Origin: Acidimicrobiia bacterium
GTDB taxonomy: Bacteria; Actinomycetota; Acidimicrobiia; Spongiisociales; ZC4RG35
Assembly: GCA_965216725.1 (NCBI GenBank)
Contig: CBDCGI010000005.1
Span: 82,016-146,015 of the forward strand
Length of the DNA: 64,000 nucleotides
Direction of reading: 5' to 3'
Part shown: piece by piece, positions 27,818-41,028 of the stretch
How positions within the stretch are numbered: the stretch's first letter is position 1
Layout: every line of letters starts with the position of its first letter
Notes under the pieces: generated by a model
Database searches by the model: none
Seen by the model: the letters and a program-made list of their open reading frames with translations, nothing else
What the model was told of the DNA's origin: nothing
Program-made: the position numbers and the translations under genes

Positions 27818-29050
27818 CTAGGACAGGGTCTCTAAGTGAGGCGCCACCGCGTAGTCGAGAAGCAACGGCCCATCTTTGGTCAACGCGACGTGCGTCACTG
27901 AGGCGTTCGGAGGCGTGAACAGCGCCTCTGCGTGGGTTTCCCTCACGGAGGTCAGTGACGACACATACGACCTGATGGCCCCGCCGTGAGCCACCACCAC
28001 CGTCACTCCGGTTTGATCGGGGGTCAGATCGTGCACGGCGCCGCGGAATCTCGCCGTCAACTCGCCCCAAGATTCTCCGGTCTCTCCGCGTTTGAGGTCG
28101 ACCCCGTCTCGATAGATGGTCTCCATGCGTCCCGGCCAGCCGTCCATGATCTGCTCCGAGGTGAGGCCCTCCCAATCACCCATCGATAGCTCTTTCAGGT
28201 CCTCCACTTTCACGACTCCATTGCTGGCCACCTGCTCCGCGGTCTGCGCTGCCCGAAGCAGCGGCGAGGAGTAGACCGTTGGATGACGCCCGTACCACTC
28301 ACTCAGCGCGGCAGCCTGTGCGACTCCCAACTCGTCCAGACCCCAGTCGCCCTGACCCTGCCATCTCCTCTCGACGTTCGCCTGTGTGCGCCCATGCCGG
28401 ACGAGGGCCACGACCGGCTCCCCGGCCTCGAGGTGGCGGCCCACAGTCTTGGAATGCGGCCCGAAATGACCGGTGTCATTGAACGTCGCAAGCCGAGGCC
28501 GACCCCATGTCCAGGTGATGCGGTTCAGGGAAGCGTTCTCCACGAATGCGTGAGGACGGCTGTCTTTGCCGGCAAGATGACGGTGAAGGATGGTGCCCAG
28601 GACGCCACCGTGGGTGACGACAGCGGCACTTCCTTCCTCACCAAGTCTTTCGGCAAGCCCGTCGACGGCGGCGAGAGCACGCTCGCTTACCTGTCGCAGT
28701 GATTCACCGGTCTCTCCGACGGGGACCGTGGGGTCGGACAGCGATCTCCGGAAACGCTTCCCGGCCTCGCCGCGCAACTCTTCGAACTTCATCCCATCGA
28801 GCTGGCCCACATCGATCTCGAGAAAGGCACCGTCCATCTCATATTGCTCGGCGAATGATTCTGCTGTGGCCCGGGCTCGTTGCAGCGGCGAGCTGACGAC
28901 AAGATCGAACCGAAGGTCGGCCAGCCGTTCACCAAGATGCTTCAGACTGGCATCGCCCGCCTCACTAAGGCCGTGATCGGTCCGACCGCTAAACACCCGG
29001 TCGACGTTTGCAGTCGACTCGGCGTGGCGTATGAAAGTGATCTCGGCCAT
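27818..29050 (-). CDS. Histidine phosphatase superfamily protein with two tandem domains (phosphoglycerate mutase / CobC-like)
   Basis: Two RHxxS/T catalytic motifs are present: FIRHAESTAN and LVRHGRTQAN. It lies immediately upstream of rnhA. Confidence 0.75.
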   Translation of the reverse strand: MAEITFIRHAESTANVDRVFSGRTDHGLSEAGDASLKHLGERLADLRFDLVVSSPLQRARATAESFAEQYEMDGAFLEIDVGQLDGMKFEELRGEAGKRFRRSLSDPTVPVGETGESLRQVSERALAAVDGLAERLGEEGSAAVVTHGGVLGTILHRHLAGKDSRPHAFVENASLNRITWTWGRPRLATFNDTGHFGPHSKTVGRHLEAGEPVVALVRHGRTQANVERRWQGQGDWGLDELGVAQAAALSEWYGRHPTVYSSPLLRAAQTAEQVASNGVVKVEDLKELSMGDWEGLTSEQIMDGWPGRMETIYRDGVDLKRGETGESWGELTARFRGAVHDLTPDQTGVTVVVAHGGAIRSYVSSLTSVRETHAEALFTPPNASVTHVALTKDGPLLLDYAVAPHLETLS

Positions 29051-29069
29051 GGGCTCCCATTGGTACTAG

Positions 29070-29906
29070 GTGAAGTGCATTGAGAGAAACCGGAAGAGCG
29101 GCTTTACTGTTCCCGAGGTGAGAGGGACAAGAATTCTCGGGCTGCGAAGTTTTGTGCTGGTCGTGGTCGTGGTGTTGGCGGCTACGGCGTGCGGGGACGA
29201 CGGGATTCCCGATCTGGAAGCGCCTGTCGGAGAGCAGGTGCTGCCTGACCTGGTGCCGGTCCCACCGGAAGACCTAAGGGTCACGTTCAAAGACGATGGA
29301 TCGGCCGAAATCAAGTTCAGCTCGACCGTGGCCAACATCGGTGGGGGAGATTTCGTCCTCCGGGCAAACGAAGTCTTCGACCAGTGGACGGTCGACCAGG
29401 AGATTCATTACTCGGAGTCAGGAGGGATCCTCCAGGACATCGATGCCGAAGTGATTTGGGGTGGCGACGGTCACGAGCACTGGCACATCAGTCGCGTGGC
29501 TACCTACCAACTGTTCGCAATGAACGCCGATGACTCCCTCACGAGGCTCGATCGCTTCGACACCAAGGTCGGTTTCTGCTTCTTCGATCACACTCGCGTC
29601 CAAGATTCTGGACCGGAGTCCTTCGTGTATCACGTTGAGGAATGCGGCACAGAGGGCGATCAAGAGATAAGAATGGGCTTGTCGAGTGGCTGGTCGGACG
29701 TCTACGACTTCGGCCTCCCAGGTCAGAGCATCGATATCACAGGGCTCGAAGACGGCAAGTACCGGGTCGAAGCGACCGCCGATGAGGCGGCTTGGTTCGC
29801 TGAAGCTGACGTCAGCAACAACACCACATGGGTTGACTTTGAGCTGCAAACAATGGACGGTCGACCCTTTGCGACTGTCGTCGCCGTTGGGCCGGATCCG
29901 CGATAG
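29070..29906 (+). CDS. Secreted or lipid-anchored lysyl oxidase-like copper amine oxidase homolog
   Basis: A signal peptide is followed by LAATAC. HEHWH (aligns with HxHYH Cu ligands), K-VGFCFFD (with KASFCLED, LTQ Lys) and GLSSGWSDVY...IDITGLEDGKYRV...ADVSNN (with the GCYDTY...ITDV..G.Y.L...NN LTQ-Tyr region) match the animal LOX catalytic domain. Confidence 0.5.
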   Translation: MKCIERNRKSGFTVPEVRGTRILGLRSFVLVVVVVLAATACGDDGIPDLEAPVGEQVLPDLVPVPPEDLRVTFKDDGSAEIKFSSTVANIGGGDFVLRANEVFDQWTVDQEIHYSESGGILQDIDAEVIWGGDGHEHWHISRVATYQLFAMNADDSLTRLDRFDTKVGFCFFDHTRVQDSGPESFVYHVEECGTEGDQEIRMGLSSGWSDVYDFGLPGQSIDITGLEDGKYRVEATADEAAWFAEADVSNNTTWVDFELQTMDGRPFATVVAVGPDPR

Positions 29907-30001
29907 TTCGCCAACATCTTCTCACCACGGAGAGTGACAGATGTGTATAGTGATTCCGAGCCTGCCGTGGGGGCAGGGAGCAATCGAAGGGTTGGGAATC
30001 T

Positions 30002-30388
30002 ATGAAGAGACGCTGGATCACTGCGCTTATTGCAACAGCCGTTGCCATGACGTTGGCGATTCCGGTCGGTGCTGCGGATCTACACGAAGATCACAAGGGA
30101 ACCGACTGTGAGCACGGCATTGTCCTGCTCCATTTCGTCAACGCTCAAACTGACGGTACGGAATGGGCCGGAACTATCACCGTGATGTTGGACGATTGGG
30201 ACAATGGTGGAACGACGATTGTCCAGACGGCCGACAAGGTGAACAAGAACACTCAGCACTTCTGGGTACCGATGGAGGGTGGCGACATCTCGGATTACGA
30301 AGAGCTGATCAACGCATCCACCGACTTGCCCGGCAAGCTGGTCCTCAGCGACTACGAGTGCGACCCCGGTAAGAAGGGCAAGAAGTAG
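30002..30388 (+). CDS. Small secreted hypothetical protein
   Basis: It has a signal peptide (MKRRWITALIATAVAMTLAIPVGAA). It is 128 aa with two Cys. A strong terminator follows. Confidence 0.5.
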   Translation: MKRRWITALIATAVAMTLAIPVGAADLHEDHKGTDCEHGIVLLHFVNAQTDGTEWAGTITVMLDDWDNGGTTIVQTADKVNKNTQHFWVPMEGGDISDYEELINASTDLPGKLVLSDYECDPGKKGKK

Positions 30389-30410
30389 CCCTCGAGTAAA
30401 CACAGAGCAA

Positions 30411-30442
30411 ACATGAAACCCCCGGCAGTGCCGGGGGTTTCT
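30411..30442 (+). terminator. Rho-independent terminator
   Basis: aaacccccggcagtgccgggggtttctcttt is a GC stem followed by a T tract. Confidence 0.75.
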
Positions 30443-30493
30443 CTTTGGGTCCAAGGTCTTGCCCGACTAGCTCTATATATGTAGAGTTATCTG

Positions 30494-30799
30494 GTGGCCA
30501 GGAGACCTTCAGCACAAACCCAAGCAGTCATCCACCACCTCCTGAGTAGCGGACGCCGGTGGAGCCACGGCTACGACGTTTCAACTGCCCTCGGGATCGC
30601 CTCCGGAACGCTCTACCCGATACTGATGCGGTTTCACGACCGGGGGATCATCGAAACCCGGTGGGAGGACTCCCCGCTCGAAGGTAGGCCCCGACGTCAC
30701 CTCTGCCGGCTCACTCCCGAAGGTGAAGATTGGGCCCGCGAGGTTCTCGCCATTGTGCCAGGGACGCTGTCCACCCGACCTGCGGAAACCCCAGCGTGA
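30494..30799 (+). CDS. PadR family transcriptional regulator
   Basis: GYDVSTALGIASGTLYPILMRFHDRGIIETRWE...GRPRRHLCRLTPEG is the PadR winged helix. An AT-rich region with a short inverted repeat (ctcta-N6-tagag) lies upstream at ~30457-30475. Confidence 0.7.
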   Translation: MARRPSAQTQAVIHHLLSSGRRWSHGYDVSTALGIASGTLYPILMRFHDRGIIETRWEDSPLEGRPRRHLCRLTPEGEDWAREVLAIVPGTLSTRPAETPA

Positions 30800-31299
30800 A
30801 CGTCCTCAAACTGTTCCCGTCAACGAAGCGGGAATGGGCAGAAGAGATGCTCAACGGCGATCACAGCGGGCTGGCGATGTTGAAATTGCTGGTTCTGGCA
30901 TGGATCCTCACCCTGAGATCAGACCGGGCCATGAGAACGGCCCTGACCACCCTGAGTCTCGTCAACATCGTTGCCGGGATCGGCCTCGGCGCGCTCATAG
31001 CCCTCACCGATACGCCGGTCGTGGTGACGCTCCTCGCCGGAGTATTGATCCTCCAAGGCGGATACACCCTCTTGGCGACACGAGCACACGAGCGCCCCCT
31101 GTCGGGTCGGATCTGGCTCATCGGAGAGACCCTCGCGCTGACGGTTGGCGGCGGGGGCCTTCTCGTCTCAACCGTCAGGAATGCCGGAGCCGTCGACCCC
31201 GAATACGGACCGATGACGGTCGCCATCCTCCTCACTGCCCACGCTGTAGTGGGCCTGACCGTTTTATCGAGGTCGGTCCGACCCCGATCCAGCGCTTAG
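30796..31299 (+). CDS. PadR-associated integral membrane protein (4-5 TMS), unknown function
   Basis: The GTG start overlaps the padR stop. The product is hydrophobic. Confidence 0.5.
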   Translation: MNVLKLFPSTKREWAEEMLNGDHSGLAMLKLLVLAWILTLRSDRAMRTALTTLSLVNIVAGIGLGALIALTDTPVVVTLLAGVLILQGGYTLLATRAHERPLSGRIWLIGETLALTVGGGGLLVSTVRNAGAVDPEYGPMTVAILLTAHAVVGLTVLSRSVRPRSSA

Positions 31300-33347
31300 A
31301 TAAAGGCCGAGGCGAAAATCAGGGAAACGATGGTCATAACCTTGATGACGATGTTCATCGCTGGGCCTGAGGTGTCCTTGAAAGGATCGCCAACTGTGTC
31401 CCCGATCACGGCCGCGTGATGGGACTCACTCCCCTTGCCACCGAATGCTCCGGTCTCGATGAACTTCTTGGCGTTGTCCCAGGCCCCGCCGGCGTTGGCC
31501 ATGAAGATGGCGAGCAAGAAGCCTGTTACCAGCGCCCCTCCCAGCAACCCTCCGAGCATCTCAGGGTCATAGAACCCGACAACGAGAGGCAAGGCAATGG
31601 CGATCGCCCCTGGGATCACCATTTCCCGGAGAGCGCTAGCCGTGGCGATATCAACACAGGTCGTGTAATCCGGCTTTGCCTCGGGGTCACCGTCTTTGAG
31701 CCCGGCGATCTCACGGAACTGACGCCTGACCTCGTCGATCATCTTTCCGGCCGCTCGGCCGACCGCGTTCATAGTCAACGCCGCAAAGAGGAACGGGAAC
31801 ATCGCACCTAGGAACAGCCCGATGGTCACCGGCGCCGAAGAAATGTCGATGGAGTCCAGATTGACCGCCTCGGTGAAGGCGTTGAACAGAGCCAGGGCGG
31901 TAACGGCCGCAGAAGCGATGGCGAAACCTTTGGCGACTGCAGCTGTGGTGTTGCCCAGCGAGTCAAGCGCATCCGTCGCCTGTCTCACCTCCGGCTCGAG
32001 GTGCGCCATCTCGGCAATCCCACCGGCGTTGTCGGCGATGGGTCCGTAGGCGTCAACGGAGATGGTGATGCCCAGAGTGGCGAGGACGCCGATCGCCGCA
32101 ATGGCGACACCGTAAATACCTCCTCCATCACCCATGGCCCACTCACCCGCGGCGTAAGCCGCACCTATGCCTCCGGCGACAACGATCACCGAGAATGCTG
32201 CAGAGCGCATCCCCTCTGCCACCCCAGAGATGATGACCGTTGCCGGACCGGTCTGGGACTGCCGGGCAATCTCCTTGACTGTCTTGTAGTGGTCGGAGGT
32301 GAACCACTCCGATATCTTCCCGACCAGCCAGCCCACGATGAGGCCGGCTACAACAGCAATCCAAATACCGACCCAATTGTCGATCTTGTCGCCGAAGATC
32401 CAAGCCGCCAACCCGGCCACACCCAGAGCGGTGACGATCATGGCGAAGTTGGTCCCACGGTGGAGAGCCGCCGCAAGGTGACCCTCGTCTTTGGCCTTCA
32501 CCAGGAACGAGCCGATGATCGACGCGAACATCCCTAACGCGGCAACGGCCAGCGGGAAGATGATGGCCTCAGACACAAAACCTGCACTGCCGAAAACCAG
32601 GGCGGAGTAGGCGACGGGGGCAACCAGTGCTCCGACGTAGCTCTCGAAGAGGTCGGCACCCATCCCTGCCACGTCTCCGACGTTGTCACCAACGTTGTCG
32701 GCTATCACAGCTGGGTTGCGGGGGTCATCCTCGGGAATCCCGGCCTCTACTTTGCCCACCAGGTCGGCGCCGACGTCGGCAGCCTTGGTGTAGATACCGC
32801 CGCCGACGCGAGCAAATAGGGCAATCGAGGAGCCACCTAGTCCGATAGCGGTAACGATCTCCACCCACTGCGGCTCTTCGAGGACGTTGTTGAAGAGCCA
32901 GAAACCGAGACCCACCCCGAGGAGCCCGAGACCGGCGACGGTGAACCCCATCACTGCGCCCCCACGGAAGGCGATGGGAAGGGCGGCAGGAATGCCTCCC
33001 TGGCGGGCGGCCTCAGTCGTGCGGGCGTTGGCTGCGGTGGCAATACGCATGCCGACGAAACCGGCGGCTGCGGAGAGTACAGCTCCGAAGACATATGCAA
33101 TGGCGCCCCAGGGTCTGCCCCAATCGAGAAGGGCGGCGATGAGGATTGCCATCACCACCACGAACACCGAAACCCAGGTGTACTCCCTCTTGAGAAAGGC
33201 CATGGCGCCGTCCCGAATCGCCGAGGAGAGCTCGACCATCCTCTCGTTGCCCTGGGGTGCGGCCAGGACCACTCGCGTGTAGTAGACCGCAAGCAAGACG
33301 GCGAGCGCACCCGCGACAAGCGCGATATACAGAATCGTGTCCGACAT
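31296..33347 (-). CDS. hppA: Membrane-bound proton/sodium-translocating pyrophosphatase
   Basis: The 683-aa ORF has about 16 [27 protein letters not shown] and [10 protein letters not shown] motifs are present. Confidence 0.9.
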
Positions 33348-33449
33348 TTAGAGAAAACCTCCGCAGCAACTGGGGTTGGGGGCGGCGGAGAGTATACGGC
33401 CGGGCTTCGAAATGGGCGAAGTCGAGTCGCCAATCTCCGGGGAGGCCCC

Positions 33450-33510
33450 TTACTCGTCGAGTGTGCTTGTCCTACCCAAAAACCGAGAGGACAAGCACAC
33501 TCGACGGGGA
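33450..33510. repeat. Palindromic intergenic element, copy 2 (perfect 17-bp stem gtcgagtgtgcttgtcc / ggacaagcacactcgac, 16-nt loop)
   Basis: It is about 90% identical to copy 1 at 15237-15294. It lies in the hppA 5' region, 27 bp from the attR repeat. Confidence 0.6.
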
Positions 33511-33536
33511 GGGATGGGGCGCAGCTGCCCGAGAAA

Positions 33537-33582
33537 TGGCAGTCCCGACCAGATTTGAACTGGCGTTTCCGGCTTGAGAGGC
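33537..33582. repeat. attR-like direct repeat: 46-bp exact copy of the 3' half (anticodon stem to CCA) of tRNA-Glu(CUC)
   Basis: tggcagtcccgaccagatttgaactggcgtttccggcttgagaggc is identical to 40851-40896. Upstream of it the sequence no longer forms a tRNA. Confidence 0.85.
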
Positions 33583-33723
33583 AGGGACTGACGGATCAAC
33601 CTTAGGCCGCTGACCTGGGAAAACGTGACCTGACCTGGGAGAATGCCGAAGTATCGATGTTGCCCGGATTGGGTGAGTTTGGGCGAGATTGGGCGGCAAC
33701 ACGGGACAGATCCGGGACGAGAT

Positions 33724-34197
33724 TCACCCGTACTTGGCGGCAAAGTCCTCGTCGGACATGAACAAGTAGATGAGGCCCTCGATGAAGCCAATGACAGCAG
33801 GCACGACGGTCCAGAAGAAGAGCAGGTAGATGATTCCGAGGCCGGTGTCGCCAAGGTAGAACTTGTGAATACCGAGACCTCCCAGAAGGATTCCCAGGAC
33901 TCCTGCGGTGACCCGCGATTTGGGCGGCGCCTGCCCAATTGGGCTGGCTGCCGGGGCAGGTGGGGGCGCCTGAGACGTGGCGAGCTTCATTTTGTCGGCC
34001 GCCGTTACGGCTTCTCCGGCCAGGTCAACCGTGAATCCCTCCTTGTGGGCTGGCTTGAAGTAGACATGCTCCTCCTCGACGACCACCTCGAAAATGTCGT
34101 TGTCGAGCTCTTTGATTTCGGAGTCCGCTTTTTCGGTGGCGACGACTTCAACCTCGTTCACCAAAAACCGCAGCATGTCCTCGGTCAGTCGACACAC
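33724..34197 (-). CDS. TM2 domain membrane protein
   Basis: GIHKFYLGDTGLGIIYLLFFWTVVPAVIGFIEGLIYLFMSDEDFAAKYG is the TM2 (PF05154-like) signature. Confidence 0.6.
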   Translation of the reverse strand: MCRLTEDMLRFLVNEVEVVATEKADSEIKELDNDIFEVVVEEEHVYFKPAHKEGFTVDLAGEAVTAADKMKLATSQAPPPAPAASPIGQAPPKSRVTAGVLGILLGGLGIHKFYLGDTGLGIIYLLFFWTVVPAVIGFIEGLIYLFMSDEDFAAKYG

Positions 34198-34268
34198 ACC
34201 TGCAGGAGGGATCTGAGACCCTCAAAGCTGCCTTCAAGGCGACCGGGCTGAATCCCCACAGTGCATCT

Positions 34269-34658
34269 GTGCGTTCAGGCGGAAAGGTCGCCGATTCGAC
34301 TATCCGGAACTATTTGGCAGGCAAGCAATACCACCGACGAAAACTCTGGGCTCTGGCTGAAGTACTCGGGGAGCGGTGGGGTGTCCAAGTCCTGAATAAT
34401 TACGGCGAACCGGAGATGGCGAACGAGCTGATAGCTATGCATCAGGCCAACAGGGATCAGCTGGCACCCCCTTGGGATGAGCCGACTGAAGTGGCTAATC
34501 CGGTCACATATGTCGGAGGGCGGCCGCCCAGAGTCACCGTCGACGGTGCGGACATCTCAACAGGTGCACTCTTCCGCAACGGTGACAAGCTCACTCCGGA
34601 GCAGCGGGCGAGGGTGCAGGGGTATATCGACCGGCTGCTCGAGGAGGAGGGCGGCTAG
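34269..34658 (+). CDS. Hypothetical protein with a partial XRE-like HTH at the N-terminus
   Basis: GKVADSTIRNYLAGKQYHRRKLWALAEVLG resembles helix 3 onward of Cro/C1-type HTH. It lies directly upstream of an ImmA-like gene. Confidence 0.4.
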   Translation: MRSGGKVADSTIRNYLAGKQYHRRKLWALAEVLGERWGVQVLNNYGEPEMANELIAMHQANRDQLAPPWDEPTEVANPVTYVGGRPPRVTVDGADISTGALFRNGDKLTPEQRARVQGYIDRLLEEEGG

Positions 34659-34661
34659 GGA

Positions 34662-35150
34662 ATGTTTTCGCGGACTGGCGTCGTGGACGGGAATCTGTCC
34701 CAGGTGCGGGGGAGGATGCCGGTCATGCGGGAATGGAGTCCTTGGGAACATTTGGACCGGTCGGCGGTCAGGCTGGCTTGGGCGAGGCTCCCCTACGTGA
34801 CTGGTGCCTACGTCCCGGGAGTGGCGACTGTGATCCTCCACCCGGAGAGCACATCGACCCAGCAGCGGTCTGCTCTTGCCGAGGAGTTGGCGCACCATGA
34901 GCTCGCTCACGAGCCGGTTGCTGATCCGGTTGCGTTGGCTCGTCAGGAGCTTCGAGCAAGGCGTTGGGCGGCGGTTCGTCTGGTCTCAGCGGAGCAGATT
35001 CTGGAGGCGGTGATGTGGACGCCTTATCTGCATGAGGTGGCGGAGCTTTTGGATGTGGACCCTGATCTGGTCGAGATCAGGGTCGAGTTGATGACATTGG
35101 AAGAGAGGCGGCTGCTCGAGGAGCGGCTCGCGGATGGGAGTGACCTATGA
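34662..35150 (+). CDS. ImmA/IrrE-like Zn-metallopeptidase (anti-repressor protease family)
   Basis: It has an HEXXH motif (HHELAHE) and is paired with the HTH gene, as in prophage/ICE immunity modules. Confidence 0.45.
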   Translation: MFSRTGVVDGNLSQVRGRMPVMREWSPWEHLDRSAVRLAWARLPYVTGAYVPGVATVILHPESTSTQQRSALAEELAHHELAHEPVADPVALARQELRARRWAAVRLVSAEQILEAVMWTPYLHEVAELLDVDPDLVEIRVELMTLEERRLLEERLADGSDL

Positions 35151-35791
35151 GAACACGATTGATCCTTGTCCTTGTGGCCCTGGTTTTGGCGGCTTGTACG
35201 GCGGAGGAGGGCTCGGACACGACGACCGTGGAAGACCCGGCGACGACGACCACGACGTCGAACCGGACGACGACCACGCCTACTCCGCCTCCCCCGCCGG
35301 AAGATCCCACCACCACGACCGCTCCCGCGCCCTCAACGACGGCTCCTCCGCCGGCCGATTCGGGAACCCGGGAACAGCCGATCCAGTTCGGGGAACCGGC
35401 TGCGGTGGGCGATTTCACTATCCATGTCGTCGACTGGGAGCCCGACGCTACCCAGACTGTCCTCGAGCACAACCAATTCAACGATCCTCCGCCGGCTGGT
35501 TCCGTCTACTCGATCGTCACCATCGAACTCACCTACACAGGAGACGAAACAGGCGAGCCGTGGCTCGACCTGTCATGGTCGGCTGTTGGCGACTCAAATG
35601 TGGCTGTCGACGCCGGCGACTGCTTCACCTATCCGAACAGCCTGTTCGACGTGAACGAGATCTTCCCGGGCGGCACGGCCCAGGGAGCTATCTGTTTTAC
35701 GGTGCCCGAGGCTGACACTGGTTCGCTGCTACTGATCCTCGAGGACTTCCTGTCGTTTGACGACACACGCCTCTTCTACGCCCTCTCCTAA
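35147..35791 (+). CDS. DUF4352-like lipoprotein with a Thr/Pro-rich linker
   Basis: It has a lipobox LAAC and a T/P-rich low-complexity region. GDFTIHVVDWE...YSIVTIELTYTGDETGEPW fits the DUF4352 pattern. Confidence 0.5.
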   Translation: MRTRLILVLVALVLAACTAEEGSDTTTVEDPATTTTTSNRTTTTPTPPPPPEDPTTTTAPAPSTTAPPPADSGTREQPIQFGEPAAVGDFTIHVVDWEPDATQTVLEHNQFNDPPPAGSVYSIVTIELTYTGDETGEPWLDLSWSAVGDSNVAVDAGDCFTYPNSLFDVNEIFPGGTAQGAICFTVPEADTGSLLLILEDFLSFDDTRLFYALS

Positions 35792-36862
35792 GTGAGTATC
35801 CAGCATCGGCCTGACAAACCGTCGCCTTGGGTGGCCCGTCTGCCTGTCGGGCACGGCAGGGAGGTGTCCCGCTCGTTCAAGAGGAAGGTGGACGCTCAGA
35901 TCTGGTTGGAGGAGGAGCGTTCCCGGAGGCGCCGCGGCGACTGGGTGGACCCGCGGCGTGGTGATGTGCTCTGGGAGGATTACACCAGCGAGGTGTTGGC
36001 AGGGAAGTCGCATCTGGCTCCGCGGACGGTCGAAACCTATGAGGCGGCCGCCCGGCGGGTTGCCCCATACTTGGATGGCACACCTCTTCGGCATGTGACC
36101 CCCGAACAGTTGGACCGGATAGTCGCCGAACTATCAGCGGTCTATGCGCCGGAGACTGTCGCCAAGTCGGTGCGGCTGATCCGCATGGTGTTGGGTAGGG
36201 CGGTGGCTCATCAGCGTCTGCTCCGCTCCCCCGCCGCTGCTCTGTCAGCGCCGCCGGTGCCGAAACGAGAGATGCGGATCCTCACCGCCGAACAGGTAGC
36301 CGAGCTGGCCGCGGTGATGCCTGACCGTTACAGGACGCTCCCGCTGACGGCCGCGTACATGGGGCTGAGGTTCGGTGAGCTCGCTGGACTGCAGGTGTCT
36401 GCGGTGGACATGCTTCGCCGCCGTCTCGAAGTCCGCCAAGTGTTGAAAGAATCTCGTAGGCGGCCGCCGTTTCTGGGCCTGCCCAAATCGTCAGCCTCGG
36501 CGAGGACCTTGGTCATCCCCCGATCGTTGGTTGATGAGCTTGCCCGACACCTCGAACAGCATCCGCCGGTCGATGGGCTGATCTGGACGACACCCCGGGG
36601 TGAGGTGCTCAGGAGAGGATCGTTCTCGAGGATCTGGCGACGAGCAGTTGACGACTCGGTCGGTTCACCGTGCCGGCTACACGATCTCCGCCACACACAT
36701 GCCGCCTGGCTGATCGCCGCAGGTGAACACCCGAAGACAATCCAGCAGCGGCTCGGTCACGGGTCCATCACTGTCACCCTTGACCGGTATGGGCATCTGA
36801 TGGAGGGCCTCGACGAGGCAGCAGCTGACAAGCTCGACGAAATGTATCGGCTGGCCCGTTGA
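35792..36862 (+). CDS. Tyrosine-type site-specific integrase
   Basis: It has an N-terminal SAM-like domain and the C-terminal catalytic motifs R..., HDLRHTHAAWL and LGHGSITVTLDRYGHL. Confidence 0.85.
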   Translation: MSIQHRPDKPSPWVARLPVGHGREVSRSFKRKVDAQIWLEEERSRRRRGDWVDPRRGDVLWEDYTSEVLAGKSHLAPRTVETYEAAARRVAPYLDGTPLRHVTPEQLDRIVAELSAVYAPETVAKSVRLIRMVLGRAVAHQRLLRSPAAALSAPPVPKREMRILTAEQVAELAAVMPDRYRTLPLTAAYMGLRFGELAGLQVSAVDMLRRRLEVRQVLKESRRRPPFLGLPKSSASARTLVIPRSLVDELARHLEQHPPVDGLIWTTPRGEVLRRGSFSRIWRRAVDDSVGSPCRLHDLRHTHAAWLIAAGEHPKTIQQRLGHGSITVTLDRYGHLMEGLDEAAADKLDEMYRLAR

Positions 36863-38002
36863 CTACTGGAGGGCGACGCTGAAGTCCTCGAAGCTTCCGT
36901 CGTTAATATCGACGTGAGCTCGCCCGGAACCTGCGATGTCGTCGAAAGGAACCACCACGGCTGGGGTCTCGGCGTCGAGGCCCTCGTCACATTGGAATAG
37001 TGAGTCCGAACTGCGGACGTAGACCGCAATGTCACTCTTATCCGTCGGTACGCGCACTTCGAGAACGCGAACAGCTTCGCTGTCAGCTCCAGATCCGGTC
37101 CCCGCCCAAGTCAGGAACTCTCCTGTGGTTGAGAAGAAGGCCAGCACGTCATCTGGGTCGCCTCCGTGATAGGAGACCGCGACGTTTACGACTGGCCAGA
37201 TCACCACATCCTCCGGGTCGACACCATCGGCCAATTGACGGTAGATGTCGTTGGCGTCTCCATCGACCGGGTTGCCGGTGACCGGGTCAACAAGGCCTGC
37301 TCCCTCGGCGATTTCCTCAGCGACCGCTTCGTCTGGGATGCTTCTGCGTTGATGCCAGTCAAGTGTGTGTTCACCCAGAAGGTCGAGGTAAGCGAGGATC
37401 GTGGCCTCCGGGGACTCTGGGGCCGGGCTCAACAAGGAAGCCTCCACAGTGAGAGTGAGGCACGAGTCAACAACGACATCTGAGATTGGGCTCACCGGAT
37501 GCTCGAACAGCTCAAGGGCGTTACGGCCCAAGGAGAACGGGCCTGCAATGGATCCGATCGGTTTAATAGAACCGCCATCATCTCCCCTTACAGCAATAGA
37601 ACCGATCCGCCCGTTTGGGTTAATCACCGCCAGCGCAGAGAACGGCAGAGAACTGTCAAAGATCTCATAGTCGGATTCGTTGAGTGCTATCGACCCGGTG
37701 TCCATGGCTCGGATCGCCTCGAGATCAGCTTCTGTCGCCGTCGGGACCAGCCACACGAAGTCAACGAACTCGAAATTCGCCTCGACTAGGTGCGTACCAG
37801 ACTCTGGCTCCGACACGGCGGTGAATACGACCTCTGCAAGGGGGGCGCGCCATTCGAGCATCGCGTCGTGGAGTCCCGCCATTTCGAACTCCGCTGATTC
37901 CATAGATGAAGCGAAGGTGGAGTCTGCTGATCCCGAATCTCTGGCGCATGCGGCACAAACGAGACTGAGTGCCAGTACAGCTGCAACGGTTGACCGTCTC
38001 AC
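36863..38002 (-). CDS. Lipoprotein, unknown function (379 aa)
   Basis: It has a signal peptide plus lipobox (LVCAAC) and is acidic. No motif was recognised. Confidence 0.5.
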   Translation of the reverse strand: MRRSTVAAVLALSLVCAACARDSGSADSTFASSMESAEFEMAGLHDAMLEWRAPLAEVVFTAVSEPESGTHLVEANFEFVDFVWLVPTATEADLEAIRAMDTGSIALNESDYEIFDSSLPFSALAVINPNGRIGSIAVRGDDGGSIKPIGSIAGPFSLGRNALELFEHPVSPISDVVVDSCLTLTVEASLLSPAPESPEATILAYLDLLGEHTLDWHQRRSIPDEAVAEEIAEGAGLVDPVTGNPVDGDANDIYRQLADGVDPEDVVIWPVVNVAVSYHGGDPDDVLAFFSTTGEFLTWAGTGSGADSEAVRVLEVRVPTDKSDIAVYVRSSDSLFQCDEGLDAETPAVVVPFDDIAGSGRAHVDINDGSFEDFSVALQ

Positions 38003-38139
38003 CAGTCCAGTATCCCCGACTTGTCAACGCGAATCGCTTGACCGTTCGCGGACCTGAAGTAGATCTTCAGGGCAATAGCGTTCTTCGTACCCGTCAACTG
38101 GATACTCCCCAAGTCGTCGATTGTATAACTGCAGGTTTT

Positions 38140-39135
38140 TCAGTTCTGATTAGACGTATTGCACGTCTTGTGGGTTTCCGGCGATGTAAAAGGCGTCCGA
38201 GAGATGAAGGTCTTACTGTTGACGCTCGTGTTGTAGTGGTAGTTCCGCCGCTTAGACCGCAGTTCGATTCCGCCAGCCTGATTCCCATTGTCTCGGTATG
38301 CGGTCCAAAGTCGTGGGGTCGGTGTTAGATCCATACCCGGATACACCACAGGACAGGATCCGCAGCCGGCCTTTATCGGGTCGTAGATGATTCTTTGTTT
38401 GACCACGTCACCGGAGTTCCCGAGTAGTGCGCTTTTGCTCCCAGAGTAGGTAGTAGAACTGAGCGACACAGAGCCAGAAGTTATCCACCATCCCCAGCCG
38501 TCCTCGAAACCCGGGCTGTAGCTCCACCAGTCACCTACTCCATCACCTTCGGACCATGGGACCCGCGCCTCATCGTCCTTCTCGAGGGTGGCCCAGTCCT
38601 CAGTCGATTTGCTCCCAACGACGGCGTCCATGGTCGGGTCGAAGGATCCACCCTGATTCCCTTCGACGTTCCACCAGAAGTTCCCGCTGTGGCCGTAATT
38701 CAGAGTATGTCCGACCTCATGCATCGCGATCCCTTGGAAGGAGATGTCGTCATCCGAAGGATTCGCAGCGGTGCTCCACATGAAGTCGGTGTTGAACTTG
38801 ATCTGAGTAGGGCTCGTTGTTGCAAAGACACCATCAGCTAGATTCGCTGTGACGATGGTTATGTCGTGCTCGTCGTCGCAATCCGTTATCCGAGAGAGGT
38901 TGAGCACGTTCCCCTGATCGGGGCCAGGTACGGCTTCCCAGGCGGGCATTATGTCGCTGTCGAACGCCGACCTGGCCTGTGACAAAGTGACGCCAGGTGG
39001 AGCATCCTCGATGCAATACCGAACAGCAATCACGGGATCATCATGCACAGTTACGGCTAATGCGGCGTAGATACCTAATCCAAAGACGATGGCGATCACG
39101 AAAAGGAACGGCCATCGGGGCGGTCGTCTCTTCAC
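38140..39135 (-). CDS. Membrane-anchored metzincin-type Zn metalloprotease (matrixin/M10-like)
   Basis: It has an N-terminal TM segment. HEVGHTLNYGHS is the HEXXHXXGXXH metzincin signature. GC is markedly lower here (38.0-38.4 kb). Confidence 0.6.
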   Translation of the reverse strand: MKRRPPRWPFLFVIAIVFGLGIYAALAVTVHDDPVIAVRYCIEDAPPGVTLSQARSAFDSDIMPAWEAVPGPDQGNVLNLSRITDCDDEHDITIVTANLADGVFATTSPTQIKFNTDFMWSTAANPSDDDISFQGIAMHEVGHTLNYGHSGNFWWNVEGNQGGSFDPTMDAVVGSKSTEDWATLEKDDEARVPWSEGDGVGDWWSYSPGFEDGWGWWITSGSVSLSSTTYSGSKSALLGNSGDVVKQRIIYDPIKAGCGSCPVVYPGMDLTPTPRLWTAYRDNGNQAGGIELRSKRRNYHYNTSVNSKTFISRTPFTSPETHKTCNTSNQN

Positions 39136-39329
39136 GGCGACTCCTCACGTCGGCCTACCGTTGCCATACCCAGGCAACCTACTCCAATCAGCGGCGGCAG
39201 TGTCTGGCGGACGCCAGGCGGACAAGCTCCAAGAGATGTGGGGCAGCGATGGTGACGCGCCTTGTGCAATCATTCACAACTGGACAGATCCGAGACAGGA
39301 AAAGCCCTTCGGTATGAACTACCCGTACT

Positions 39330-39435
39330 TCGTTGCGAAATCCTCGTCGGACATGAAGAGATAGATCAGGCCCTCAATGAACCCGATGATGGCCGGGATG
39401 AAGGTCCAGAAGAAGAGAAGGTAGATCACTCCGAG
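39330..39435 (-). pseudogene. 3' fragment of a TM2-domain gene (about 80% nt identity to 33724-33840)
   Basis: Alignment by eye of the fragment with the 3' end of the intact TM2 gene. Confidence 0.6.
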
Positions 39436-39621
39436 GCCCTACGGCACACTCACGCAGCCTGGCTGATCGCCGCCGGTGAGCACCCGAAGACCATCCAGCA
39501 GAGGATGGGCCACGGTTCGATCACAGTCACCTTGGACACCTACGGACATCTGATGGAAGGTCTCGACGATGGAGCCGCTGACAAGCTCGAGGAGATGTTC
39601 AAGGCAAGCGCGTCGCGCTGA
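39436..39621 (+). pseudogene. C-terminal fragment of a second tyrosine integrase (about 80% identity to 36676-36862)
   Basis: It encodes LRHTHAAWLIAAGEHPKTIQQRMGHGSITVTLDTYGHLMEGLDDGAADKLEEMFKASASR. It is fused directly to the TM2 fragment with no N-terminal part. Confidence 0.7.
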
Positions 39622-39630
39622 CTCATCCTC

Positions 39631-39673
39631 AGTGTTGCTTAACACTACTGTTAATAGTAGTGTTAACACTGAC
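39631..39673. promoter_or_regulatory. Nested AT-rich inverted repeats (AGTGTT-gc-TTAACACTACT-gttaat-AGTAGTGTTAA-CACT) overlapping the start of the downstream gene; putative operator/promoter
   Basis: The repeats are seen directly. The 11-bp arms are perfect. Confidence 0.5.
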
Positions 39674-39674
39674 G

Positions 39675-40766
39675 ATGCCCCCACCACGAATCGCAGACAA
39701 AGGAGAAATCAAAGACTTTGTAGTTATGCTCCCGGCGCCTCTACTGACGAACCTAGCGAACCGACTTGTGATTCAGTTTGGCGTCTCCCGGCCTACGGCA
39801 CACAAATATATCGGTGAGCTGATCAGCGACGGAGTGATACGTCGGACAGGCATGGGCTCATACGAGCTCGCGGAAGAGCACTATCACACGACCCGCCAGA
39901 TTGTGGGGCTGGAGGAGCATGTCGTGTGGACCGAGGTCGTTGCCCCTCTGATGGCCGGCCACACAAAGAACGTGCGCGATATCGTGAATTACGGATGCAA
40001 TGAAATGGTCAACAACGCCATAGACCATTCAGATTCAACAACCGTCGACATCGAAGTGAGGATGGCGCCGACCCATGTCGAACTCCATGTCGAAGACCAT
40101 GGGGTAGGAATCTTTCGGAAGATCGCCAACTCGCTTGGCCTTGAAGACGACCGTCATGCGGTGCTCGAGTTGGCCAAAGGAAAGGTAACGACCGATCCGA
40201 TAAACCATACGGGGGAAGGTATCTTCTTTTCATCGAGGGCTTTCGACAGATTCCACATCTACTCCGGCGGCGTATTGTTCAGCCATGAGTTCGGGGACGA
40301 CGAGGATTGGATAACCGGCGACGAGCAGCCACAGCGCGAGGTGAACGGAACTCTTGTAGCCATGATGATGCGTAACGATTCAGAAACAGATCTGCAGGAC
40401 GTCTTTGACGAGTACAGCAGCGGGGACGATGACTATGGCTTCGACAAAACTGTGGTCCCAGTGAAGCTGATGCAATACGGAGACGATCAGTTGGTATCTC
40501 GCTCACAGGCCAAAAGGCTGATGAATCGATTCGATCGATTCCAAACGGTGGTTCTTGATTTTGACGGGGTCCCTGCAGTCGGCCAGGCGTTTGCAGACGA
40601 AGTCTTTCGCGTTTTTCAACTGGAGCATCCCGAGATTGATCTCGTAGCCATACGTGCAAATGAGCAGGTCGCTCGCATGATGAATCGGGCGCTGAAAAGC
40701 GCGAGCAGCAATGGAGCCGAGAATGGAATACAGCTGCCGATCGACTACTCGGCCGAGTCTTCATAG
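39675..40766 (+). CDS. Single-chain wHTH + GHKL (RsbW/SpoIIAB-like) ATPase/kinase domain + C-terminal STAS/DUF4325-like domain protein
   Basis: The N-terminus has a winged-helix signature (NRLVIQFGVSRPTAHKYIGELISDGVIRR). The N-box NEMVNNAIDHS, G1 VEDHGVGI and G2 HTGEGIFF define the GHKL domain. The C-terminus VVLDFDGVPAVGQAFADEVFRV resembles anti-sigma-antagonist/STAS. GC is about 52% here against about 62% background. A terminator follows. Confidence 0.6.
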   Translation: MPPPRIADKGEIKDFVVMLPAPLLTNLANRLVIQFGVSRPTAHKYIGELISDGVIRRTGMGSYELAEEHYHTTRQIVGLEEHVVWTEVVAPLMAGHTKNVRDIVNYGCNEMVNNAIDHSDSTTVDIEVRMAPTHVELHVEDHGVGIFRKIANSLGLEDDRHAVLELAKGKVTTDPINHTGEGIFFSSRAFDRFHIYSGGVLFSHEFGDDEDWITGDEQPQREVNGTLVAMMMRNDSETDLQDVFDEYSSGDDDYGFDKTVVPVKLMQYGDDQLVSRSQAKRLMNRFDRFQTVVLDFDGVPAVGQAFADEVFRVFQLEHPEIDLVAIRANEQVARMMNRALKSASSNGAENGIQLPIDYSAESS

Positions 40767-40819
40767 GAGGCGGACGGGACAGATCCGGGACAGCCGAACA
40801 CCCGTTCTGATCACCAAAA

Positions 40820-40848
40820 GGCAAAAACCCCCTCTGACGAGGGGGTTT
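40820..40848 (+). terminator. Rho-independent terminator
   Basis: aaaaccccctctgacgagggggtttgttt. Confidence 0.7.
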
Positions 40849-40850
40849 GT

Positions 40851-40926
40851 TTGGCAGTCCCGACCAGATTTGAACTGGCGTTTCCGGCTTGAGAGGCCGG
40901 CGTCCTAGACCCCTAGACGACGGGAC
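40851..40926 (-). tRNA. tRNA-Glu (anticodon CUC); attL, target of the island
   Basis: rc = GGTCCCGTCGTCTAGGGGTCTAGGACGCCGGCCTCTCAAGCCGGAAACGCCAGTTCAAATCTGGTCGGGACTGCCA. The cloverleaf folds and the anticodon loop is CCTCTCAAG. Confidence 0.85.
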
Positions 40927-40956
40927 CATGTTGTCGGTCGACCATTATCGACCTCG

Positions 40957-41028
40957 CTCGGGGGGAAGGACTCGAACCCTCAATAACGGGACCAGAACCC
41001 GCCGTGTTACCGATTACACCACCCCCGA
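40957..41028 (-). tRNA. tRNA-Gln (anticodon CUG), CCA not encoded
   Basis: rc = TCGGGGGTGGTGTAATCGGTAACACGGCGGGTTCTGGTCCCGTTATTGAGGGTTCGAGTCCTTCCCCCGAG. It has a 7-bp acceptor stem with U1-A72, a 4-bp D stem, anticodon loop TTCTGGT and T-loop TTCGAGT. Confidence 0.7.

Follow-up and report, generated by a model that had tools for sequence, protein, structure and literature searches.

Why does the 3′ part of a tRNA-Glu(CUC) gene occur twice, on either side of 7.3 kb of DNA, in contig CBDCGI010000005.1 of an Acidimicrobiia bacterium, and what is the DNA that lies between the two copies? We analyzed a 64-kb stretch around this locus (the window), and all window coordinates given here count from its first letter. 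Our answer is that positions 33583-40851, called the island below, are probably foreign DNA that was put into the 3′ part of the tRNA-Glu(CUC) gene by a tyrosine integrase, that at least two related elements probably contributed to it, and that it is now best seen as grounded and decaying.

The tRNA-Glu(CUC) gene was placed by ARAGORN at 40852-40927 and its upstream partner in the tRNA operon, tRNA-Gln(CUG), at 40956-41028, both on the minus strand; the tRNA-Gln gene belongs to the host flank and is kept in relatives. The 46-mer TGGCAGTCCCGACCAGATTTGAACTGGCGTTTCCGGCTTGAGAGGC corresponds to positions 31-76 of tRNA-Glu(CUC), from the anticodon loop to the 3′ end, and is found exactly at 40852-40897, the tRNA-proximal copy of the attachment site (att), and again at 33537-33582 (minus strand), the distal att copy. 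A first-pass annotation of the same DNA had recognized this exact duplication, though it set the tRNA-proximal copy one base too low, at 40851-40896. The 46-mer has no third copy in the window with up to three mismatches, and 100 dinucleotide-preserving shuffles produced 0 matches to it. With one mismatch allowed, the repeat runs 3 nt further to a length of 49 nt. The distal copy and its adjoining 3 nt hold a nearly complete anticodon stem-loop (CCTGC-CTCTCAA-GCCGG), a layout that crossover in the anticodon loop by a tyrosine integrase should give. No tRNA was called by ARAGORN at 33537-33612, in agreement with the earlier statement that the sequence upstream of this copy no longer folds as a tRNA. 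Between the distal copy and the H+-pyrophosphatase gene to the left of the island (31296-33347, minus strand), repeat analysis revealed a hairpin at 33448-33513 (minus strand) with 26-nt arms that are 88% complementary. This hairpin is part of the host flank and not of the island. It probably terminated the tRNA operon before it was displaced; an island-supplied replacement terminator is found at 40825-40848.

The pyrophosphatase gene also allowed the site to be compared in relatives, whose loci carry L numbers here. Its relatives among the GTDB species genomes are metagenome-assembled genomes of Acidimicrobiia, the best of them 84-88% identical, and 80 pyrophosphatase loci were compared and searched by tblastn with the eight island proteins. 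In L006, tRNA-Gln, tRNA-Glu(CUC) and the pyrophosphatase gene follow each other in this order with 108 bp from tRNA to gene, which is an empty tRNA-Glu(CUC)-tRNA-Gln site of the kind that the first-pass annotation had suggested looking for in related genomes. Synteny on both sides was found in L003 and L009, where Tad-pilus genes, tRNA-Gln and tRNA-Glu(CUC) are followed by 2.6-3.4 kb of other genes and then the pyrophosphatase gene. None of the eight island proteins gave a tblastn match in any of the 80 loci, L003 and L009 included. The relatives are distant, and the comparison favours insertion and gives no date for it. Together with the exact repeat, and with an integrase family that abuts tRNA-Glu in four other loci, the empty site and the absence of the island genes bear out the earlier proposal of site-specific integration at the tRNA-Glu(CUC) 3′ end.

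The interval between tRNA-Glu(CUC) and the pyrophosphatase gene is variable in these relatives even without an integrase. A cysteine-rich HNH-endonuclease-like gene abuts the tRNA-Glu(CUC) 3′ end in L003 (7411-8073) and in L009 (6646-7404), further non-conserved genes accompany it, and no tRNA-derived repeats were found in the variable regions of these two loci.

The intact tyrosine integrase gene of the island, int_A, is located at 35792-36862 on the plus strand (PF00589 5.9e-19; phrog_1 7.9e-60) and has more than 1,200 homologues, the few source-named ones coming from Acidimicrobiia or Actinobacteria metagenome bins. Residues of the C-terminal catalytic region of the integrase are conserved in the family alignment, the Tyr of LDRYGHL among them. 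In four relatives the end of the integrase gene is no more than about 90 bp from a tRNA-Glu gene. The integrases of L081 (76% identical to that of the window), L082 (73% by tblastn) and L083 (76%) are encoded by genes that read towards a minus-strand tRNA-Glu(UUC) and end within this distance of it. In L095 (57% identical) the order is HTH_17, int, tRNA-Glu(CUC), tRNA-Gln and a Tad/type-II-secretion gene cluster, and because the same kinds of gene lie beyond tRNA-Gln in the window, L095 looks like the same chromosomal site.

The last 100 bp before the tRNA 3′ end follow a common plan in this family, with two direct repeats 11 bp apart, a spacer of about 30 nt, a GC-rich hairpin and then the end of the tRNA. 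Window positions 40752-40851 are colinear with five related loci; the arm repeat reads GGGACAG in the window, L081, L082 and L083, and GGCCCA in L093 and L095. Alignment together with a motif and terminator scan delimits the arm of the window at 40767-40851, where two 11-bp-phased GGGACAG repeats (40774-40795) and a spacer are followed by the hairpin at 40825-40848, which scores as a terminator on both strands and abuts the tRNA 3′ end. Since 40767-40851 fits the common plan exactly, we take it to be a genuine integrase-proximal arm. In relatives the integrase frame overruns the arm repeats, while in the window a GHKL-STAS gene precedes the arm, and int_A stands 4 kb from the tRNA while the integrase-proximal arm remains there. 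At the other end of the island, the arm beside the distal att copy (33583-33723; repeat and motif search) carries the direct repeat GACCTGGGA twice, TTGGGYGRG three times, and the 18-bp motif ACGGGACAGATCCGGGAC at 33701-33718. This motif is exact and in the same orientation at both island ends, its left copy lying 119 bp inside. ACGGGACAGATCCGGGAC and the GGGACAG repeats are candidate arm-type binding sites for the integrase.

An exact look-up of the integrase sequence found no entry. Its full-length identity to the integrases of actinophages and of actinomycete integrative and conjugative elements (AICEs) is about 28-33%, a metagenome scan gave one close match on a 2.6-kb contig with the others at most 36% identical, and a scan of viral contigs returned no related integrase. 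Two observations on the relatives are worth recording. In L093 (9560-9659), and in L094, a hairpin and then 44 nt of a tRNA-Glu(UUC) 3′ end come after the integrase gene, and over the final 11 nt of the contig the sequence no longer agrees with the tRNA (TCAGG vs GCCGG); this could be a distal att copy, or else the phage-type attachment site (attP) of an element in free or circular form. Upstream of the integrase at tRNA-Glu(UUC) in L082 (186-6568) there is a gene for an AAA_15/AAA_21 ATPase and, at a greater distance, a CHAT-protease gene next to a DUF7379 gene, which look like defence-type cargo, unlike the content of the island in the window.

Nearer the tRNA, the island holds what is left of a second element. 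Repeat analysis identified the 3′ end remnant of a second TM2 gene at 39321-39438 (minus strand), 82% identical to 33726-33843, fused directly to the 3′ end remnant of a second integrase gene, int_B′, at 39439-39621 (plus strand). The fused open reading frame (ORF) covers positions 127-168 of the 172-position integrase Pfam profile (PF00589). At the DNA level, 39439-39598 is 82% identical to 36686-36845, and the best protein match of the int_B′ peptide is int_A itself, at 87%. A motif search also found a degenerate arm motif of the GGGACAG type, with 2 mismatches in 18, at the left edge of the remnant (39279-39298, plus strand). For both int_A and int_B′, similarity to their relatives breaks off at one and the same position, a few codons short of the stop, and neither has the C-terminal tail that in relatives extends over the att arm. 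The stretch 39321-39621 is the leftover of a second related element, deleted from inside the TM2 gene to near the end of the integrase gene. As it contains this deleted second copy, the island is a product of accretion and decay and not one clean element. The first-pass annotation had also noted low GC at about 38.0-40.8 kb, and we find a GC content of 52-58% at 37.5-40.8 kb vs 60-68% in the flanks. The largest tetranucleotide deviation in the window falls at 37-41 kb and 33.5-36.9 kb is host-like, so that by both measures only the right half of the island is a strong outlier.

It is possible to ask whether a single element arrived with the present gene order. The TM2′/int′ pair would then have come from an internal partial duplication and deletion, or from recombination with a relative before integration, and a cargo slot between int and the arm would be normal. 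In keeping with this, there are only two att copies, both exact, the 18-bp arm motif is identical at the two ends, and the loss of similarity at the same 3′ point in int_A and the remnant looks as if a cargo slot lay there. However, the duplicated segments are just 82% identical, which two diverged elements fit better than a recent internal duplication, the composition of the two halves differs strongly, and in all five of the related loci the integrase gene leads directly into the arm, without any cargo in between. We consider arrival as a single element unlikely, and two related elements at the same tRNA, one of them deleted and their junction lost, are the most economical history.

For this history of two elements we propose the following course. 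An attP with a tRNA copy reaching from the anticodon stem-loop to the 3′ end would have recombined with the host gene, the anticodon loop being the most likely place of crossover. The rebuilt tRNA would owe its 3′ half and its terminator to the element, and the displaced original 3′ half would be left at the far end as the 46-bp repeat. Element A, on the left and of host-like composition, would have contributed a phage/ICEBs1-type operon of xre, immA, a surface lipoprotein gene and int, as well as TM2 cargo. Element B, on the right and compositionally foreign, would have undergone the internal deletion that fused the TM2 3′ end to the int 3′ end, keeping its GHKL-STAS cargo and, at the tRNA, its original integrase-proximal arm. 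An att copy is to be expected between elements A and B; it would have been lost, and two genes for envelope or secreted proteins now stand there. With exact outer repeats, the same 18-bp motif at each end and one intact integrase, the whole stretch would form one unit, which int_A might excise as a block. Having no excisionase or means of transfer, the island is probably grounded and cannot spread by itself.

Several points weigh against this account. The empty site comes from a distant relative, the nearest genomes sharing about 60% amino acid identity in the neighbouring genes and 84-88% in the pyrophosphatase. The T stem of the tRNA is a second difficulty. A CCAG/CTGG variant is found in both repeat copies of the window and in the tRNA-Glu genes beside the integrase genes with GGGACAG arms in L081 and L082, whereas the T stem is CCGG/CCGG in the tRNA-Glu(UUC) of the window and in L001, L003 and L006, and GCGG/CCGC in L009 and L095; L095 is without CCAG/CTGG though an integrase gene with a GGCCCA-type arm adjoins its tRNA-Glu. 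Since a single crossover in the anticodon loop should leave the distal copy with the host's own T-arm, the variant in the distal copy is not what one simple integration predicts. Either the host tRNA already had the variant, or it was replaced in earlier rounds of integration or by gene conversion. Furthermore, no third core copy (with up to three mismatches) and no arm-core remnant were found between 36863 and 39278, and with neither an internal att site nor a second arm, the tandem history is reconstructed and not seen. In L081 and L082, a search over 10 kb did not reveal the distal att copy, which leaves the integrase family with no complete reference element, and the capacity of the island for excision is something that we infer from its sequence.

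The genes assigned to element A begin at the island edge with a TM2-domain membrane protein in a cargo ('moron') position (33724-34197, minus strand; PF05154 1.5e-15, phrog_10680 6e-26). On the plus strand follow an XRE/HTH_3-family repressor-like gene (34200-34658), a gene for an ImmA/IrrE-type M78 metalloprotease with a HELAH motif (34662-35150; PF06114 8.7e-07, phrog_87 4.2e-17), a lipoprotein gene (35147-35791) and int_A, the start of which abuts the preceding stop. As stops and starts abut or overlap across these four genes from xre to int, they form one operon; a scan for sigma-70-type promoters returned no sites. The lipoprotein has a LAAC lipobox, a Thr/Pro-rich linker and a DUF4352-like domain, and its gene sits where temperate phages have surface lipoproteins. 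PHROGs families were matched by the TM2, ImmA and Int proteins and by the DUF4352-like protein. To the right of int_A, and on the minus strand, are genes for a predicted lipoprotein of 379 aa with no family match in Pfam, PADLOC, PHROGs or NCBIfam (36863-38002) and for a membrane-anchored or secreted zinc-metalloprotease-like protein with the motif HEVGHTLNYGH (38140-39135).

The gene names of the first-pass annotation largely hold, with the tyrosine integrase, ImmA-like, TM2 and GHKL-STAS genes all borne out by their Pfam matches. Its 'DUF4352' and 'metzincin' fall below the Pfam cut-offs (DUF4352 at 20.2 vs 25.9 bits, Matrixin at 21.2 vs 24 bits), but the former has a match to phrog_806 (3.7e-09) and the latter its HEVGHTLNYGH motif. 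The name 'XRE-like' also needed another route. This ORF has no Pfam match of its own, even with its frame extended, and a word-based homologue search returned only the ORF itself, but a full HMMER scan gave 13 homologues. Eleven of these, all distant, were aligned; HTH_3 is matched by 9 of the 11, and the homologue profile matches the helix-turn-helix (HTH) domain of BldD (2ewt). The only canonical start is a GTG at 34269. The homologues align to an open upstream frame without ATG, GTG or TTG, this frame encodes the first HTH helices, and the complete HTH lies 5′ of the GTG. Within 34188-34269, the codon at 34188 reads GTC, a single substitution away from GTG. Either translation begins at a non-canonical codon, or the start has been lost and the gene makes a truncated HTH.

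The nearest larger relative, the phage-like L093/L094, has an ImmA 66% and an Int 74% identical to those of the window. Where the window has its TM2 gene, this relative carries a divergent operon that encodes HTH_17, a replication initiator of phage type, a transglycosylase and an endonuclease VII/HNH protein. Only the TM2 gene is divergent to the XRE-like gene of the window, where no xis, transfer or lytic operon is found. Because this operon is missing, element A looks, from its gene content, like a version of an L093/L094-type phage-like element that was stripped of it.

The cargo gene between the integrase remnant and the integrase-proximal arm (39660-40766, plus strand) encodes a winged HTH, a SpoIIAB/RsbW-like GHKL kinase and a STAS-like DUF4325 domain in one polypeptide (Pfam 4.8e-14 for GHKL and 4.1e-07 for DUF4325). 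The predicted structure (predicted local distance difference test, pLDDT, of 80) has an N-terminal winged HTH, a central domain matching SpoIIAB/RsbW (Foldseek E ~1e-5) and a C-terminal STAS fold. The Bergerat-fold motifs N114, D141-x-G143-x-G145 and G180-x-G182 are kept in the family alignment. Directly upstream of the gene and overlapping its start, we read AT-rich operator-like palindromes at 39627-39669 (GTGTT..AACAC; GTGTTGCTTAACAC, TTAACACTACT-GTTAAT-AGTAGTGTTAA, GTGTTAACAC), which are a candidate operator that the winged HTH of the encoded protein could bind.

Homologues of this protein number more than 7,500 across phyla, and the mentions of DUF4325 that we found in the literature are an unrelated prophage gene table and a note on co-occurrence with PIN domains. 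In L096 (5513-7302; also in L097-L099) a homologue that is 56% identical is the sole gene in 1.7 kb between exact 25-bp repeats of a tRNA-Val(GAC) 3′ end, with no integrase, and this stretch has the look of an integrated element reduced to one gene. In L103 (6437-10175) the order is tRNA-Ser(TGA), a P4-like integrase, a GHKL-STAS homologue and AlpA. Another homologue lies at an insert edge beside a comM fragment in L101 (6001-8866; also in L102), and in L104 (5903-8891), which is the same locus, comM is intact and the homologue stands beside it. Two further contexts have no mobile-element genes nearby. The GHKL-STAS gene is a recurrent cargo gene of integrated elements.

What kind of element the island represents was assessed with Pfam, PHROGs and NCBIfam. 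None of its eight proteins gave a match to a capsid, terminase, portal, tail or lysis protein, and none to a relaxase, type IV secretion component or FtsK-type transfer protein, as the first-pass annotation had said of conjugation and capsid genes. There is likewise no excisionase/HTH_17, replication initiator, primase or packaging gene in the island by the same searches. No proteins matching the modules of satellites or of integrative and mobilizable elements (IMEs) were found among the eight, although an oriT is not excludable from sequence alone. With PADLOC-DB 2.0.0, 0 of the 8 proteins were matched at E <= 0.01. On these grounds we rejected a complete prophage (capsid, terminase, portal, tail and lysis genes absent), an integrative and conjugative element (ICE) or AICE (conjugation and replication genes absent), a satellite resembling phage-inducible chromosomal islands (PICIs; replication and packaging genes absent) and a known defence island (no PADLOC model matched). 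The description of a small mosaic island that is not a full prophage or ICE stands; its possible labels as 'defence' or 'satellite-like' are without support, there being no PADLOC match and no replication or packaging genes.

A more active role was also weighed, in which the island is a minimal helper-dependent element, satellite-like or mobilizable, that is excised by int_A under an XRE/ImmA switch and moved by a helper phage or conjugative element, with the GHKL-STAS and envelope proteins as selected cargo that serves, for example, superinfection exclusion or a new defence. In favour of this role are an intact integrase, exact 46-bp repeats, matching arm motifs, an ImmA-type protease and, in several contexts, GHKL-STAS homologues at or near tRNA genes, an integrase gene or a split comM. 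We nevertheless find this role unlikely. The searches of the island turned up no excisionase/HTH_17, replication initiator, primase, packaging, oriT or relaxase gene, PADLOC gave no match, and the repressor-like gene has no canonical start for a complete HTH. The integrase protein cluster consists of one member on one contig, and viral contigs yielded no related integrase. It is no less of a long shot that the island is a minimal element of Acidimicrobiia that can still move with the aid of a helper and has a cargo slot between int and its arm site, and that its GHKL-STAS protein, from a very large uncharacterised family, is a single-gene defence or host-control function retained during decay. 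That there was no insertion, the region being ancestral and the 46-bp repeat a relic of local tRNA gene duplication, is very improbable and was rejected on the arm homology and the integrase family: tRNA genes do duplicate and the nearest genomes are too distant to rule out lineage-specific ancestry of some genes, but the repeat ends at the anticodon stem like the identity blocks of integrated elements, the two copies enclose an integrase of the tRNA-Glu-associated family, the flank nearest the tRNA shares homology with the integrase-proximal arm in related elements, the L006 site is empty and the composition of the island is deviant.

On the other side of the pyrophosphatase gene there is probably a second small insertion. 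Between this gene and the ORF at 27818-29050, window positions 29050-31296 hold about 2.2 kb of lower-GC DNA (55-60%), and the same two genes are about 100-170 bp apart in relatives (e.g., L004, L002 and L009). The stretch contains a lysyl-oxidase-like ORF (29070-29906) and ORFs without a match in the related loci that were compared.

The island at tRNA-Glu(CUC), which we read as two related elements integrated at one tRNA gene, is an ordinary integrase-borne tRNA island of a known type; it is a useful annotated example from Acidimicrobiia, and unsurprising. It is biologically ordinary and leaves current understanding unchallenged. It does give, from a class that has received little study and is mostly uncultured, a clean and well-delimited case in which a tRNA gene took up an element and accretion and decay ensued. 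It also defines an integrase family associated with tRNA-Glu whose arm can be recognised by two 11-bp-phased repeats and then a terminator hairpin; this arm could serve to delimit islands in metagenome-assembled genomes. One lead has wider reach, the uncharacterised family of proteins joining a winged HTH, a kinase and a STAS domain that recurs as cargo of integrated elements.

How does the island compare with known systems? It has the marks of tRNA islands in general, with a repeat derived from the tRNA 3′ end, an internal integrase gene, absence in relatives and, at 37-41 kb only, deviant composition. Integration of tyrosine integrases into tRNA genes, including a sublocation class in the anticodon loop, was reportedly set out by K. 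P. Williams in 2002. Like the islands and prophages of that class, the island has a 46-bp identity block from the anticodon stem-loop to the 3′ end, element DNA that reconstitutes the tRNA, and an integrase family tied to one tRNA species. Unlike them, its intact integrase gene is 4 kb off and does not abut the tRNA, and its crossover point would be placed in the anticodon loop from the extent of the repeat. The integrases of Micromonospora pMLP1, of plasmid NC_006910 and of Gordonia and Arthrobacter phages have the same domain layout and full-length similarity of about 28-33%; this similarity is distant, and the island has none of the AICE replication, FtsK-like transfer or phage structural genes.

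The GHKL-STAS protein can be compared with SpoIIAB/RsbW-SpoIIAA/RsbV partner switching, since its kinase-like domain matches SpoIIAB/RsbW structures and its C-terminus is STAS-like. It differs in fusing the kinase-like and STAS-like domains to an N-terminal winged HTH, in having no sigma factor partner nearby, and in belonging to a family (DUF4325) that is uncharacterised.

The left module has counterparts in temperate phages of Gram-positive bacteria, whose lysogeny modules, such as that of Streptococcus thermophilus phage TP-J34, run int-lipoprotein-metalloprotease-repressor. ICEBs1 carries an immR-immA-int module (PMC8960796). As in these modules, the island has the genes for an M78/ImmA protease with HExxH and for int in one operon, which starts with a putative XRE-family repressor gene and into which a surface lipoprotein gene is inserted. 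It differs from them in having no repressed divergent operon with xis, replication, transfer or lytic genes, in a repressor-like gene without a canonical start for the full HTH, and in its Acidimicrobiia host.

Accretion in tandem with subsequent decay has been described as one way in which islands form at tRNA genes; like cis-mobilizable elements (CIMEs), it is described for ICESt1-related islands and IMEs (PMC5704250). The island departs from these in that its parts are fused without the internal att site by which a true tandem or CIME is defined, and in that it has no conjugation or mobilization genes. It resembles them, on our reading, in having two related elements at one tRNA, one of them internally deleted and without its integrase, and outer att sites that bound the whole as a unit.

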